Assembly: GCA_017557865.1 (NCBI GenBank)
Contig: JAFYXW010000006.1
Span: forward strand, 21,553 to 85,552
DNA: 64,000 nt
Reading direction: 5' to 3'
Source of the DNA: Candidatus Saccharimonadota bacterium
GTDB lineage: Bacteria; Patescibacteriota; Saccharimonadia; Saccharimonadales; Saccharimonadaceae
Of the stretch, positions 6,309 through 52,416 are shown in pieces. The stretch's first letter is position 1, and each line of letters starts with the position of its first letter. The translations under genes were made by a program, and so were the position numbers. The notes under the pieces were generated by a model. That model ran no database searches. It was given only the letters and a program-made list of their open reading frames with translations, and was not told the DNA's origin.

Positions 6309-7742
6309 ATGCATTTTAAGACTATTTTCAAATCCCTAAAAAATAAAGACATGCTGAAGAGAGTTCTGATTATTTTTGGTATTCTTGTTGCCTATAGACT
6401 TCTCGCGCAAATTCCAGTGCCAATGGGGAATGCAGCTACCTTTAAAGAAGCCGTATCGAATCTTTTGGAAAAGTCTGACTTCTCGAACTTCCTCAATTTG
6501 ATTTCTGGTGGTGGTTTGGCCTCGTTTAGCATTATTTTGGTAGGTCTTTCACCATATATCACTGGTTCTATCGTGATACAACTTTTGACTAAGGCAGTTC
6601 CGCGTCTAGAAGAGCTTTCTAACGATGGCGAGACTGGCCGTCGCAAGATTAATCAGTGGACTCGCATGCTTACAGTGCCACTAGCAATTGTGCAGTCTAT
6701 CGCTTATATCTTTATTTTGTATCAATCAACGATTTCGGCTAACGTGGCTACAGAATTTACCCCTACCTTTAACGATTGGGCTTTGTCGGTTACGGCAATG
6801 ACGGCCGGTTCAGTAATTCTTATGTGGATGGGCGAACTTATTACAGAGCAAGGTATTGGTAACGGTATCTCTACCCTTATCTTTGCTTCGATCGTGTCGC
6901 AACTTCCTACTACCATGGCTTCGCTCGGCGCAGCGTTGTTCGACACTTCTGCCGGCACTTTGAACTTGTTTGGTTGGCTGGAACTTCCTGTAAATCCAAC
7001 CGTTTTCTGGATTGTAGTTGGTTTTGCTATTGCAATGCTAGTAGTGATTTACTTCTTGGTAAAGTTGAACGAAGCACAGCGGATTATTACTATTAATTAC
7101 GCAAAGCGCGTACATGGTAATTCGTCTTATGGCGGGATTAAATCGATTTTGCCAATTAAGTTGATTGCAGCAGGTGTGATCCCAGTGATTTTTGCTACAG
7201 CTTTCCTGTCTTTGCCGGCTTTGGTTGGTCAAGTGATCACTTCGGTAAATCCAGGTAACGAAGTTGGTACAATGCTTACTTCAGTATTTTCGGCACCATC
7301 AGCTAACAACTTTACCACGATGTATCCAAATGGTATCACTGGACAATGGTTTGTTTATCCAGCAATCTACTTCTTACTAGTGTTTGCGTTTACTTATTTC
7401 TATACTTCGATTATTTTTAATACCAAGGAAATTGCCGATAATCTGCAAAAGCAAGGTGGTTTTATTGAGGGCGTACGCCCAGGTATCAAGACGGCGGAAT
7501 ACCTCGGCAAAGTAGTAAATCGTCTCGATCTATTTGGCGCTCTTGCGCTTGGTCTTATTGCAATGTTGCCGTTTGCAACAGATTATGTATTTATCCTACT
7601 AACCGGCGCTCCACTTGGGCTTTCTATCTCTGGTACAGGGCTTCTAATCGTGGTTACAGTCGCGCTTGAGAACTTGAGGTCGGTGGACTCACGTGCGCTA
7701 ATGATAACTTATGACGATTTCAATAATGAGCTTGAAGATTAA
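6309..7742 (+). CDS. secY: Preprotein translocase subunit SecY
   Basis: A 477-aa polytopic protein with typical SecY motifs (…GGGLASFSIILVGLSPYITGSIVIQLL…, …KKQGGFIEGVRPG…). Confidence 0.93.
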   Translation: MHFKTIFKSLKNKDMLKRVLIIFGILVAYRLLAQIPVPMGNAATFKEAVSNLLEKSDFSNFLNLISGGGLASFSIILVGLSPYITGSIVIQLLTKAVPRLEELSNDGETGRRKINQWTRMLTVPLAIVQSIAYIFILYQSTISANVATEFTPTFNDWALSVTAMTAGSVILMWMGELITEQGIGNGISTLIFASIVSQLPTTMASLGAALFDTSAGTLNLFGWLELPVNPTVFWIVVGFAIAMLVVIYFLVKLNEAQRIITINYAKRVHGNSSYGGIKSILPIKLIAAGVIPVIFATAFLSLPALVGQVITSVNPGNEVGTMLTSVFSAPSANNFTTMYPNGITGQWFVYPAIYFLLVFAFTYFYTSIIFNTKEIADNLQKQGGFIEGVRPGIKTAEYLGKVVNRLDLFGALALGLIAMLPFATDYVFILLTGAPLGLSISGTGLLIVVTVALENLRSVDSRALMITYDDFNNELED

Positions 7743-8409
7743 GGGTTGGCGAAAAATTATTAGTTGGACTTTTTGGTCTATTTTGGCGATACTATTTTTG
7801 GTTTATTTTATTAGAGTAGCGACCTTTGAAGACGCTTATTACAGAGAAAAAGAAGGTAGCGAACGAGCAGAAACGGCAGCAATTGAAGAGGAGGTGGAAC
7901 TAATCGAAGAAAAGCCGTCCGAGACCGAAATTGCAGAATACATAGTAGCGGCAGACATGCCGCGATATTTAAGTGTCGCGAAACTCGGCGTTTCTAAGGC
8001 GCGAATTATTCCGGTTGGGATTAATATTAGTGGGGAACTGGGCACGCCGAATAATATTTTTGATACAGGGTGGTATGATGCGTCAGCTAAGCCTGGAACG
8101 GGCGGAACAATGCTTCTTGACGGGCATAATGGTGGGCCACATGTACACGGCATCTTTAAGGATCTGCCAACGCTTACAGCTGGAGATATTATAGAGATTG
8201 AGCGTGGAGATGGCACAGTCTTTAAATATTCAGTAGTGAAGAACGTAACGGTAGCTCTTTCTGATTCTGATGCCGAAATGACGACAGCAATGCATTCTCC
8301 AGAACCAGGGAAAGAATCTATCACGATAATCTCTTGTACGGGCGAATGGTCACAGACGCAAAGAACCTATCTTTCTAGGCAGTTTACATACGCAGTTATA
8401 GTAGAGTAA
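7711..8409 (+). CDS. Sortase-family transpeptidase-like protein (divergent)
   Basis: N-terminal TM and an acidic linker, then a His (LLDGHNG) … Cys (ITIISCTGEW) … Arg (SRQF) arrangement. It overlaps the secY 3' end by 32 nt; an alternative start is ATG 7726. Confidence 0.6.
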   Translation: MTISIMSLKIKGWRKIISWTFWSILAILFLVYFIRVATFEDAYYREKEGSERAETAAIEEEVELIEEKPSETEIAEYIVAADMPRYLSVAKLGVSKARIIPVGINISGELGTPNNIFDTGWYDASAKPGTGGTMLLDGHNGGPHVHGIFKDLPTLTAGDIIEIERGDGTVFKYSVVKNVTVALSDSDAEMTTAMHSPEPGKESITIISCTGEWSQTQRTYLSRQFTYAVIVE

Positions 8410-8423
8410 AATATAAGGTTTCT

Positions 8424-8498
8424 GGGGCCGCGTCCGGTCGGCCCATCGCCATGGGCGGCCGGCGCTAATTCTCGCGCTGCCGCGCTCCGAAATGCCCC
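8424..8498. repeat. GC-rich structured repeat, copy A (75 nt) nested in a copy-specific inverted repeat (8410-8514)
   Basis: GGGGCCGCGTCC…GGCGCTAATTCTCGCGCTGCCGCGCTCCGAAATGCCCC. The flanks AATATAAGGTTTCTGGGG / CCCCAAAAATCTTATATT are complementary at 16 of 18 positions. It starts 1 nt after the stop codon of the sortase-like gene. Confidence 0.8.
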
Positions 8499-8518
8499 AA
8501 AAATCTTATATTTTCCTC

Positions 8519-12745: not shown

Positions 12746-12766
12746 AACAGTCAAAAAGTACCCATT

Positions 12767-12871
12767 GGGGCCGCGTCCATCCGGCCCGTCGCCACGGGCG
12801 GATGGCGCTAATTCTTCGCTTCGCTCACGCGTCCCAAGGGGCGAACGCGCTGCCGCGCTCCGAAATGCCCC
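12767..12871. repeat. GC-rich structured repeat, copy B (105 nt = copy A + a 30-nt nested module) inside a copy-specific inverted repeat (12748-12891)
   Basis: It has the same termini as copy A (GGGGCCGCGTCC… …CGCGCTGCCGCGCTCCGAAATGCCCC) plus the extra TCGCTTCGCTCACGCGTCCCAAGGGGCGAA at 12816-12845. Flanks: CAGTCAAAAAGTACC… / …GGTACTTTTTTGACTG. Confidence 0.8.
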
Positions 12872-12965
12872 AACAGGTACTTTTTTGACTGTCTTAACAT
12901 TTTATGATATAATAATATCTGTGAGGGGAGGTTCAAGGACATTAAAATGAAAGAGAGGTAACTTT

Positions 12966-19159: not shown

Positions 19160-19897
19160 ATGAAGAAAATTGTGATTAGATTCGCAATTTTGGCGGCTCT
19201 CGCCGGGCTTTTGGTGTGGGCGTTTTCTGCAATAAAAAATCGTGAAGTAAATATAAACAAATGGTTTGTAGGGAATTACCAAAAAGGCGTGGATGTGTCT
19301 TCGTATCAAGAGGACGTAGATTTTGATAAATTGAAAGAGCAGCATATTGATTTTGTGTACGTAAAAGCGACTGAAGGTAGTACGCATGTGGACAGCAGTT
19401 TTAGTAAGAAATGGGCCGATACGGCGGTGGCAAGGATGCCGGCGGGGGCATATCATTATTTTTCATACGAAAGTAGTGGCGCCAAGCAGGCGGAAAACTT
19501 TATCAAAACGGTTGGGAGTTTGGACGGACGGTTGATCCCGGCTGTGGACATGGAGCTGACAGTTGAAGAGGTGAATAACCCACCAGAAAAAGATGTCGTA
19601 GTGCGTGGGCTTAAAGCTTTTTTGGCAGTCATTGAAGAAAAATATGGGGTGAAGCCGCTGATTTATGCGCAAAAAGATTATTGGGACAAATACTTGGCGG
19701 AAGATTTCTCTGATTATCCGCGTTGGATTCGAAATGTTTACTATCCAGTTTTTGTGGATGCGGGCGATGATTGGCTAGTGTGGCAGTATTGGGATAAATG
19801 CGTACTAGAAGGCTATAGTGGCGAAGAGTTTATCGACATGAATGCGGTAAATACGGGCGGGCTGGAAAAACTTGAATACAAAAATGGTGGAGCATAG
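19160..19897 (+). CDS. Glycoside hydrolase family 25 lysozyme (muramidase)
   Basis: Start at MKKIVIRF… with a signal peptide. GH25 motif GVDVSSYQEDVDFDKLKEQHIDFVYVKATEGSTHVD. The last 4 codons lie in a tRNA-derived repeat. Confidence 0.85.
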   Translation: MKKIVIRFAILAALAGLLVWAFSAIKNREVNINKWFVGNYQKGVDVSSYQEDVDFDKLKEQHIDFVYVKATEGSTHVDSSFSKKWADTAVARMPAGAYHYFSYESSGAKQAENFIKTVGSLDGRLIPAVDMELTVEEVNNPPEKDVVVRGLKAFLAVIEEKYGVKPLIYAQKDYWDKYLAEDFSDYPRWIRNVYYPVFVDAGDDWLVWQYWDKCVLEGYSGEEFIDMNAVNTGGLEKLEYKNGGA

Positions 19898-19902
19898 GAG
19901 AT
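19885..19902 (-). repeat. Direct repeat of the last 18 nt of tRNA-Ala(GGC), 61 nt downstream of the tRNA
   Basis: 19885-19902 is identical to 19964-19981 (TGGTGGAGCATAGGAGAT on the plus strand). It overlaps the GH25 stop codon. Confidence 0.85.
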
Positions 19903-19931
19903 AGGGATCACCTATGCTCGTCATGCAGCAC

Positions 19932-19959
19932 AAAAATAGACCCTAAAGGGTCAATTTTT
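19932..19959. terminator. Bidirectional hairpin terminator within the tRNA-Ala(GGC) downstream insert
   Basis: AAAAATA-GACCC-TAAA-GGGTC-AATTTTT. It can serve the tRNA (minus strand) and GH25 (plus strand). Confidence 0.6.
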
Positions 19960-19963
19960 CTGC

Positions 19964-20039
19964 TGGTGGAGCATAGGAGATTCGAACTCCTCACCTCTTC
20001 CATGCCATGGAAGCGCTCTACCAAATGAGCTAATGCCCC
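19964..20039 (-). tRNA. tRNA-Ala (anticodon GGC)
   Basis: The reverse complement folds as a 76-nt cloverleaf: acceptor GGGGCAT/ATGCTCC (G3:U70), anticodon loop ATGGCAT, T-loop TTCGAAT, encoded CCA. Confidence 0.9.
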
Positions 20040-36526: not shown

Positions 36527-36602
36527 GCCGTAATAGCTCAGTTGGTAGAGCAGCCGCCTTGTAAGCGGCAGGTCGTCGGTTCAAGTCCGACTTGCGGCTC
36601 CA
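36527..36602 (+). tRNA. tRNA-Thr (anticodon TGT)
   Basis: 76 nt: acceptor GCCGTAA/TTGCGGC, anticodon stem GCCGC/GCGGC with loop CTTGTAA, T-arm GTCGG-TTCAAGT-CCGAC, CCA. Confidence 0.88.
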
Positions 36603-36616
36603 CGAGTGAAAACAAT

Positions 36617-36640
36617 AGAGAACGCCTGCGTTCTCTTTTT
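36617..36640 (+). terminator. Rho-independent terminator inside the tRNA-Thr(TGT) downstream insert
   Basis: AGAGAACG-CCTG-CGTTCTCT followed by TTTTT. Confidence 0.7.
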
Positions 36641-36650
36641 GTTTTCCGAG

Positions 36651-36688
36651 TGGAGCAAAAGTGCCGTGCACTTGCGGCTCCATTTTTT
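36651..36688 (+). terminator. Second terminator-like hairpin whose 3' arm is the duplicated tRNA-Thr 3' end
   Basis: TGGAGC-AA-AAGTGC-CGT-GCACTT-GCG-GCTCCA followed by TTTTTT. Confidence 0.6.
36670..36682 (+). repeat. Direct repeat of the last 13 nt of tRNA-Thr(TGT), 67 nt downstream
   Basis: ACTTGCGGCTCCA occurs at 36590-36602 and 36670-36682. The second copy is followed by TTTTTT and the rmuC promoter. Confidence 0.75.
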
Positions 36689-36689
36689 G

Positions 36690-36707
36690 TGCTATAATGA
36701 GTTTATG
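36690..36707 (+). promoter_or_regulatory. Extended -10 box abutting the rmuC start
   Basis: TGcTATAAT (36690-36698), 6 nt, ATG at 36705. Confidence 0.55.
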
Positions 36708-42142: not shown

Positions 42143-42219
42143 GGGATTTTAGCTCAGTTGGCTAGAGCGCAGCATTCACATTGCTGAGGTCACAGGTTCG
42201 AGACCTGTAAATCCCACCA
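42143..42219 (+). tRNA. tRNA-Val (anticodon CAC)
   Basis: 77 nt: acceptor GGGATTT/AAATCCC, anticodon loop TTCACAT, T-arm ACAGG-TTCGAGA-CCTGT, CCA, T-run. Confidence 0.88.
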
Positions 42220-42271
42220 TTTTTTTGTTCCAGATTCTGCATCTAGCTGGGAACCTGTGGAACTTCGTAAA

Positions 42272-42300
42272 CACAGGTTCGAGACCTGTAAATCCCACCA
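42272..42300 (+). repeat. Direct repeat of the last 29 nt of tRNA-Val(CAC), 52 nt downstream
   Basis: CACAGGTTCGAGACCTGTAAATCCCACCA occurs at 42191-42219 and 42272-42300. Both copies are followed by a T-run. Confidence 0.9.
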
Positions 42301-42487
42301 TTTTTTATCTGATTTTTATTCTTTGTTGTAATTTTTACATTTTTAGCATAAAAGTCTTGAAATACTATATGTGGTGGTGTATTATAGGAATAAGACACCA
42401 AATGTAGCGGAAAAATACACAATATAAATACCGGTACAAGTAAGTCATACACAAAATTATAGAATACATTTGAAGGAGGTATATTCT

Positions 42488-52238: not shown

Positions 52239-52314
52239 AGGGGTGTAGCTCAGTTGGTAGAGCACTGGTCTCCAAAACCAGGTGTCGCGAGTTCGAGTCT
52301 TGCCGCCCCTGCCA
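52239..52314 (+). tRNA. tRNA-Trp (anticodon CCA)
   Basis: 76 nt: acceptor AGGGGTG/CGCCCCT, anticodon loop CTCCAAA, T-arm GCGAG-TTCGAGT-CTTGC, CCA, T-run. Confidence 0.88.
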
Positions 52315-52364
52315 TTTTTTTGTGGCAGCAATCCTCTCACTCGCGGAGCGTCCCAAGGGGCAAA

Positions 52365-52393
52365 CGCGAGTTCGAGTCTTGCCGCCCCTGCCA
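52365..52393 (+). repeat. Direct repeat of the last 29 nt of tRNA-Trp(CCA), 50 nt downstream
   Basis: CGCGAGTTCGAGTCTTGCCGCCCCTGCCA occurs at 52286-52314 and 52365-52393. Both copies are followed by a T-run. Confidence 0.9.
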
Positions 52394-52416
52394 TTTTTTG
52401 TTGTATAATGCTAATT

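Follow-up and report, generated by a model that had tools for sequence, protein, structure and literature searches.

The 64,000-nucleotide stretch analyzed here, called the window throughout, belongs to a 694-kb genome (G000; 24 contigs, 42% G+C, marker-gene completeness 100%) and carries two GC-rich fold-backs on its forward strand, copies A and B. Copy A, delimited from the sequence, the ORF list, and the computed fold (−80.7 kcal/mol with flanks), spans 8408..8514, its first bases falling within the stop codon that ends the gene before it (ORF 7711-8409). AT-rich outer arms private to this copy (8408-8423 and 8499-8514) surround a conserved Y-shaped core (GGGGCC...GCCCC; 8424..8498), which was placed from the consensus structure and is matched by covariance model R1 at 99.5 bits (E 1.8e-19). 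Within the core, hairpin P2 (8430-8465) has a CGCC loop with a bulged T and a bulged G, its central hairpin at 8434-8462 reading CCGGTCGGCCCAT-CGCC-ATGGGCGGCCGG. The consensus linker TAATTCT separates P2 from hairpin P3 (8469-8491), whose loop is TGCC.

Copy B (12748..12891, also on the forward strand; fold −99.0 kcal/mol) starts 3 nt after the stop codon of rpsI. Its outer arms, CAGTCAAAAAGTACC and GGTACTTTTTTGACTG, are again private and resemble an A-tract/T-tract terminator stem. The conserved core lies at 12767..12871 (R1 match 67 bits, E 3.9e-12); it includes P2 at 12773-12808—stem allele 2, CCATCCGG/CGGATGG—with the central hairpin CCATCCGGCCCGT-CGCC-ACGGGCGGATGG at 12777-12805. Near the downstream end of copy B lies the best promoter-like match of the region, at positions 12885-12913 (TTGACT, 17 nt, TG-TATAAT; 11/12). 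This match starts inside the 3′ outer arm, so that the stem supplies the −35 box of the downstream gene.

A first-pass annotation of the window had described three pairing-preserving double substitutions between the two central hairpins, and the sequences at these coordinates bear it out. From A to B, three pairs are doubly changed (G-C to A-T, G-C to T-A, and A-T to G-C) and a single T·G becomes C-G, while the bulged G and the CGCC loop are common to both. Copy B also carries the 30-nt insert TCGCTTCGCTCACGCGTCCCAAGGGGCGAA at 12816-12845, exactly between AATTCT and CGCGCTGCC, as had been noted. The three compensated pairs are, however, alleles circulating in a larger family and not events private to A and B: The copy B stem allele also occurs at C1:20986 of this genome, and the copy A allele at C1:171190 and C13:1582. 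Copy B and C1:171190 are 94% identical over 104 nt, and their 6 differences amount to 3 compensated pairs. A G·T intermediate is seen in one case, where the pair is C-G in C1:171190, T·G in copy A, and T-A in C13.

The earlier description of two related repeats was right about their sequences but too narrow in scope. Short-word BLAST with A and B against their own genome recovered at least 11 copies, and a covariance model built on six insert-free copies (82 positions, 27 pairs) found 16 in the 694 kb, A and B included. Across the genus Ca. Nanosyncoccus, the model gave about 500 matches in 50 of 60 genomes, with 0 to 30 matches per genome and none in the remaining 10; for 40 other families of the order, each represented by a single genome, it gave no match. 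Scanned against one genome per species (185,579 species), an exact core pattern was confined to contigs bearing the title Ca. Saccharibacteria or Ca. Nanosyncoccus, to unnamed bins, and to one contig titled Clostridiales. Where contig titles state a source, it is ruminant gut for most. The contig titled “Clostridiales bacterium” (L171; CAVEVP010000004.1) is probably a mislabeled or mixed bin. Copies A and B are thus members of a genus-wide, non-coding, GC-rich family of Y-shaped fold-back DNA repeats.

All copies are 80-200 nt long, and each folds into a single long hairpin. A conserved core of ~75 nt caps an outer stem that is specific to each locus; the core comprises stem P1 (GGGG/CCCC), the bulged hairpin P2 (loop CGCC), the linker TAATTCT, and hairpin P3 (loop TGCC), the P3 arm being closed by a short helix, TTC/GAA or TCC/GGA. 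The outer stem (12-92 nt, median 27) is self-complementary within each copy and different at each locus; the copies have no terminal inverted repeats in common, and only the inner P1 stem is shared. Consensus frequency is higher in loops and bulges than in stems (0.87 vs. 0.77, in a sample biased by the search pattern).

Searches for a known relative of the family returned nothing. Rfam gave only tRNAs and chance-level matches, both for the whole window at gathering thresholds and for ten copy loci at E up to 10; a CPEB3 ribozyme match over the insert downstream of tRNA-Trp (19 bits, E 0.13) is at chance level and was discarded. The core pattern had 0 matches in 2.9 million viral contigs. A 14-mer of the insert module had 104 single matches in the same contigs, which by our own rough estimate is no more than chance, and a viral origin was rejected in the absence of any such link. 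A search of the literature on repeats in Saccharibacteria, Nanosyncoccus, and Patescibacteria found no description of the family.

The larger sample allowed pairing to be quantified. Among 100 distinct copies, 91.4% of pair cells are complementary, compared with 73.1% in shuffles, and double changes occur in 22 of 27 pairs. The covariation score is 0.442, compared with 0.141 in shuffled alignments; none of 500 shuffles reached the observed value, and sliding the partners by 1-3 columns reduced the score to at most 0.083. Additional copies thus do not break the proposed pairs at random, and the claim of a maintained hairpin, first drawn from two sequences, holds over at least 100.

The form of the covariation argues about what it is that pairs. 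Of 2658 core pair cells, 2422 are Watson-Crick, 27 are A·C, and only 8 (0.3%) are G·T, so that G·T is rarer than A·C. Flips from G-C to C-G, which pass through no wobble intermediate, are about as common as changes from G-C to A-T. Outer-arm mismatches, 67 of G·T type and 78 of A·C type, are per type no commoner than ordinary transitions; they are symmetric between strands, and counting them relative to the mRNA strand likewise reveals no bias. A helix selected as RNA usually carries several per cent G·U, and on the transcribed strand only. The paired changes are real, but they look like DNA rather than RNA pairing.

These counts bear most directly on the alternative that the repeat is a structured RNA under selection—a 3′-UTR element, terminator, small RNA, or ribozyme—whose compensatory changes keep an RNA fold. 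Strong covariation, conserved loops, and the one G·T intermediate (C1:171190 to A to C13) are what such a molecule would show; copies A, B, and C20:4457 lie directly 3′ of stop codons in the direction of the upstream gene; and a T-run stands at the stem base of 14 of 32 intergenic copies, compared with 26 of 104 genic ones. A terminator reading of A and B themselves is not supported, a consensus scan calling neither and T-runs standing beside only some intergenic copies. Against selection on an RNA stand the scarcity of G·T (0.3% of pair cells, below A·C), the lack of wobble bias among arm mismatches on the mRNA strand, the lack of an Rfam match, and two properties described below: the location of 76% of copies within coding frames, with 32 antisense among the 85 whose host strand is clear, and an orientation that tracks skew rather than gene direction. 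We consider a selected RNA very improbable. The first-pass annotation had left the choice between RNA and single-stranded DNA open; of the two, only single-stranded DNA fits the rare G·T, the strand-symmetric mismatches, the presence of both orientations in genes, and the skew-following orientation.

The 30-nt insert of copy B (12816..12845, forward strand), delimited from the A/B alignment, occupies the unpaired P2/P3 junction and contains an invariant 13-mer, CGTCCCAAGGGGC, at 12830-12842 on the same strand. An identical 30-nt module stands at the corresponding position in C1:171190. The module core GCGTCCCAAGGGGCAAACGCG also occurs alone, at 52348..52368 on the forward strand, at the tip of a hairpin formed from a duplicated tRNA-Trp 3′ end; this is the recurrence downstream of tRNA-Trp that had been noticed at the outset. 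The 13-mer is found 6 times in this genome and 76 times in 25 of 61 genomes of the genus, its reversed control 0 times. It occupies at least six contexts: the P2 apical loop, the P3 apical loop, the P2/P3 junction (copy B), the 5′ side of P2, the tip of a second, unrelated core family, and the tips of tRNA 3′-end hairpins (Trp here; His, Leu, Met, Asp, Thr, and Cys elsewhere in the genus). All contexts inspected place it at an unpaired hairpin tip or junction, so that scattered occurrence outside hairpins was not found, and where it is nested in the Y core its polarity is always that of the core.

Among five copies of this genome, each of the two stem alleles (1 and 2) is found with each of the two module positions (junction and tip), so that all four combinations exist. 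This four-gamete pattern indicates recombination between copies or repeated insertion. Together with the 76 occurrences in 25 of 61 genomes and the at least six contexts, it supports the proposal that the module is small and independently mobile or recombining.

Hairpins at tRNA ends are not confined to those with the module. Four tRNA genes of the window—Ala-GGC (19885-20039), Thr-TGT (36527-36690), Val-CAC (42143-42306), and Trp-CCA (52239-52399)—share a layout in which the gene is followed on its 3′ side by a spacer, then by an incomplete inverted repeat of its own 3′ portion, and finally by an exact direct duplicate of its terminal 13-33 nt with a T-run. The arrangement forms a hairpin with a free NCCA-like tail, and only that of tRNA-Trp has the 13-mer at its tip. 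Behind a tRNA-His gene of another genome (L408:308-694; G028:C7:15507-15893), a 90-nt unit combines the tRNA 3′ end and a spacer with an inverted piece of the T-arm and the 13-mer module. It forms a tandem array of 4.3 units at 100% identity, with tRNA-Gly after it; this array looks like a very recent amplification. A tRNA-like minihelix formed by the module and the tRNA 3′ end was also considered. It has 6 base pairs at tRNA-Trp and, by eye, about 4 at tRNA-His and at L129, and was rejected as not general.

Most copies do not lie between genes, a placement that the first-pass annotation, correct about the hairpin, had missed. Eight of the first 11 copies in this genome are within long open frames, and the host genes identified by Pfam are housekeeping genes: Der, TatD, Obg, TruB, DnaX, UvrC, and two methyltransferases. 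The Der copy lies between the two GTPase domains, and the Obg copy between the G domain and the C-terminal domain. Over the genus, open frames span 104 (76%) of 136 distinct copies, 53 in sense, 32 in antisense, and 19 in ambiguous orientation. All six reading frames are used, and the resulting peptides are unrelated to one another although rich in Arg, Ala, Gly, Pro, and Ser; most copies add 20-60 residues to the host protein. For the most part the copies keep the frame, contain no stop codon, and fall in a linker or loop of the protein.

Two host sites were compared across genomes. In 40 genomes, the der linker ranges from 12 to 159 nt, each length being a multiple of 3 and stop-free; the core occurs there in both orientations, and in other species the site holds hairpins of unrelated types. 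The tatD loop follows a der-like pattern in 30 of 30 genomes, with insert lengths that are multiples of 3, and here copies with different cores have the outer arm GGGGGTCCTGACC in common. The tatD copy of G000 is flipped relative to most orthologues. Splicing of an intron or intervening sequence was rejected as a general explanation, since the 70 site lengths measured at der and tatD are without exception divisible by three and stop-free, and a spliced element would require neither property.

Alleles at these sites also differ between close relatives. The der locus was compared with contigs of four other studies: Strains with ~98% identical flanks carry 49 different bases where this genome has 154 nt, the element among them, and in a ~90% identical strain part of the element is on the opposite strand. 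For this der insert (L054:2335-2488; G000:C1:20956-21109), the 154-to-49-nt change was observed in two runs and the opposite-strand part in a third. Other copies also map to the der core, which raises its depth to 3 to 17 times the flanking value. The elements thus come and go, replace one another, and change orientation within short periods. Some der and tatD sites are empty; where a site is filled, the ancestral linker has been replaced instead of extended, and no direct repeat was seen. Selection on the host proteins would leave only in-frame, stop-free states.

Other fold-backs occupy the same positions. Unrelated hairpin families stand in frame in the der linkers L066, L067, L072, and L075 and in the tatD loops L276, L286, L289, L295, and L296; one such type is ~180 nt, AT-rich, and contains GGACTTGAATTTTTAAGCACG. 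Several fold-back families seem to use common permissive sites.

The private outer stems resemble the sequence next to which they lie. In relatives, the region downstream of rpsI has ordinary A-tract/T-tract terminator hairpins without a core, and in this genome the core stands at the tip of such a stem. At C20:4457, one arm includes the final codons of the upstream gene together with its stop, and the opposite arm is the inverse of the first; the der allele L070 has an additional inverted copy of upstream der sequence; and the hairpins at tRNA ends are made of the tRNA's own T-arm. Orthologous der copies have arm changes that are matched in both arms, within coding sequence. The DnaX and TatD copies, in different genes, have ~35 nt of outer arm in common, so that the insertion site is not the source of every arm, and a whole hairpin can also be copied elsewhere.

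Core orientation follows base composition. Among relatives, the top strand of the core lies on the locally G-rich strand in 65 cases and on the other in 11. An independent replicate with 20-kb windows on ten contigs of seven genomes gave 34 vs. 5, all ten contigs being concordant. Skew is a better predictor of orientation than the direction of the host gene, and copies antisense to their gene are still skew-concordant (11 vs. 3). GC skew is used here only as a proxy for replication direction. In G000 alone the rule is weak and non-significant (10 vs. 6), becoming clear only with relatives. Five strong copies on contig C1 of G000 (90-175 kb) lie on the C-rich strand, against a weak local skew; these discordant copies and the flipped tatD copy suggest recent flips or a rearranged or misjoined contig.

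Polarity relative to replication also recalls oriented chromosomal motifs. A further alternative is a site that has spread through its benefit to the host—a cruciform or protein-binding site with a role in chromosome organization, replication, or termination, a role that some REP/BIME or Correia copies have acquired. Conserved loop motifs agree with such a role, as do the terminator-like stems that hold some intergenic copies and the strong −35/−10 match of the copy B 3′ arm. Host benefit is nevertheless difficult to reconcile with a low and very uneven copy number (0 to 30 matches per genome; none in 10/60), with positions that are not conserved, copies being present, absent, or flipped even among strains, and with the load of 20-60 additional residues that most copies place on essential genes. 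We regard a host-beneficial site as highly improbable.

We lean toward reading the family as selfish DNA, similar to Rickettsia palindromic elements, that spreads by replication template switching without a dedicated transposase. We infer this route; no insertion or template-switch event was directly observed. The active form would be a single strand that folds where the lagging-strand template leaves it exposed. Existing DNA hairpins would receive new cores and the 13-mer mini-module at their unpaired tips and junctions, the copying route being template switching during replication with no dedicated transposase. Outer stems would extend through backward copying of neighboring sequence, and the same templating could transfer a change in one arm to the other, giving a “compensatory” pattern without RNA function. 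The 30-nt insert of copy B would be one nested module that recombination reassorts among copies. Selection on host proteins would act afterward, with only in-frame, stop-free copies surviving. One expectation counts against the template-switch view: Folding of the top strand only should permit some G·T, and no such tolerance is seen.

The conserved loops and bulges and the invariant 13-mer are typical of protein-recognized hairpins, so that an enzyme or host factor may be needed. In a fully enzymatic alternative, the repeat is non-autonomous and moves as single-strand DNA with the help of an enzyme acting in trans, either of HUH type as in REP/RAYT and IS200/IS605 ends or a host recombinase or topoisomerase, which would recognize the folded Y and its conserved loops on the lagging-strand template. 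It would account for stems that covary around conserved loops, bulges, and 13-mer, for the tracking of GC skew by strand polarity (IS200/IS605 shows the same kind of strand polarity), and for nested modules that all have the polarity of the core. It leaves unexplained how stems arise as inverted copies of the flank, which cut-and-paste or peel-and-paste does not produce, and why alleles are replaced rather than cleanly emptied; neither a target motif nor a target duplication was seen. Six Pfam families—Y1_Tnp (PF01797), RVT_1, TnpB, rve, DDE_Tnp_1, and Transposase_20 (IS110)—were sought in G000 and none was found, in a genome with 100% marker-gene completeness; metagenome bins often lose insertion sequences. 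We judge movement by an enzyme in trans to be unlikely, with a probability that is small yet appreciable.

Within the template-switch reading, we tentatively consider a more specific form, which we think somewhat doubtful: transposase-free mobile DNA in which a 13-nt “seed” and the Y core are copied into hairpin tips of the lagging-strand template, build stems from their neighbors, and remodel protein loops and tRNA 3′ ends. If true, this would mean continual remodeling, in ultra-small CPR bacteria, of loops in essential proteins and of tRNA-gene 3′ ends. The private stems, core swapping, nested tip modules, and link to the replication strand point to replication-coupled spread, possibly transposase-free.

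The family has consequences beyond its mechanism. For RNA discovery it is a caution, in that DNA-level processes can also produce covariation that is strong and looks “RNA-like”; the two can be separated by wobble counts, strand symmetry, and orientation. A 0.7-Mb genome tolerates 20-60 added residues in Der, Obg, DnaX, UvrC, TruB, and others, making the system a natural experiment on the birth of protein loops. In practical terms, gene calling, alignment-based phylogeny, and metagenome assembly of the group will suffer from the repeats.

Several known systems share parts of this description. Quasipalindrome-templated mutation is intrastrand template switching at imperfect inverted repeats; it would yield Watson-Crick-only “compensation,” outward growth of palindromes, and inverted copies of neighboring sequence, and it is known as a process at single sites but is not known as a route of spread for a genome-wide repeat family. 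Integron attC sites resemble the family in being folded single-strand DNA structures with extrahelical bases and much free stem sequence. Their outer boxes are conserved and their center is variable, whereas the reverse holds here, where there is also no cassette context. The REP/BIME-RAYT system and the subterminal hairpins of IS200/IS605 are likewise imperfect DNA hairpins with conserved bulges and loops, covarying stems, and a polarity relative to the replication strand, seen here through skew (65 vs. 11 and 34 vs. 5). The present family differs from them in its locus-specific stems, in being 76% intragenic rather than extragenic, and in a genome where no Y1/HUH (PF01797) or TnpB was found.

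Miniature elements such as Correia/nemis, ERIC, and BOX are also short, non-autonomous, hairpin-folding repeats. They have shared terminal inverted repeats, target-site duplications, and usually a parent insertion sequence, in contrast to the outer inverted repeats here, which differ per locus, and for which neither a duplication nor a parent element was found. Inversion is possible for Correia elements, and insertion of one element into another occurs among BOX, RUP, and SPRITE (PMC10969869); these behaviors parallel the flipping and nesting of the present family.

By analogy, the family appears most like the Rickettsia palindromic elements, small palindromes of ~100-150 bp that lie in frame in housekeeping genes of Rickettsia, each family with one conserved peptide (Ogata et al. 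2000, 2002, as relayed in PMC10969869). Both are multicopy palindromes of ~100-150 bp that encode no transposase and inhabit the very small genome of a host-dependent bacterium. Both interrupt numerous unrelated housekeeping genes without shifting the frame, and the inserts seem to be translated as additional loops. They belong to different phyla: The core pattern scan of 185,579 species' genomes returned no Rickettsia, the host of RPE-1 to RPE-10. The likeness would extend the protein-coding-palindrome phenomenon of Rickettsia to the Candidate Phyla Radiation, in a form that differs from the known elements in being read in all six frames rather than as one conserved peptide each, in its Y-shaped three-way junction, private outer stems, and flips at fixed sites, and in the small modules nested in its loops and an orientation that follows GC skew.
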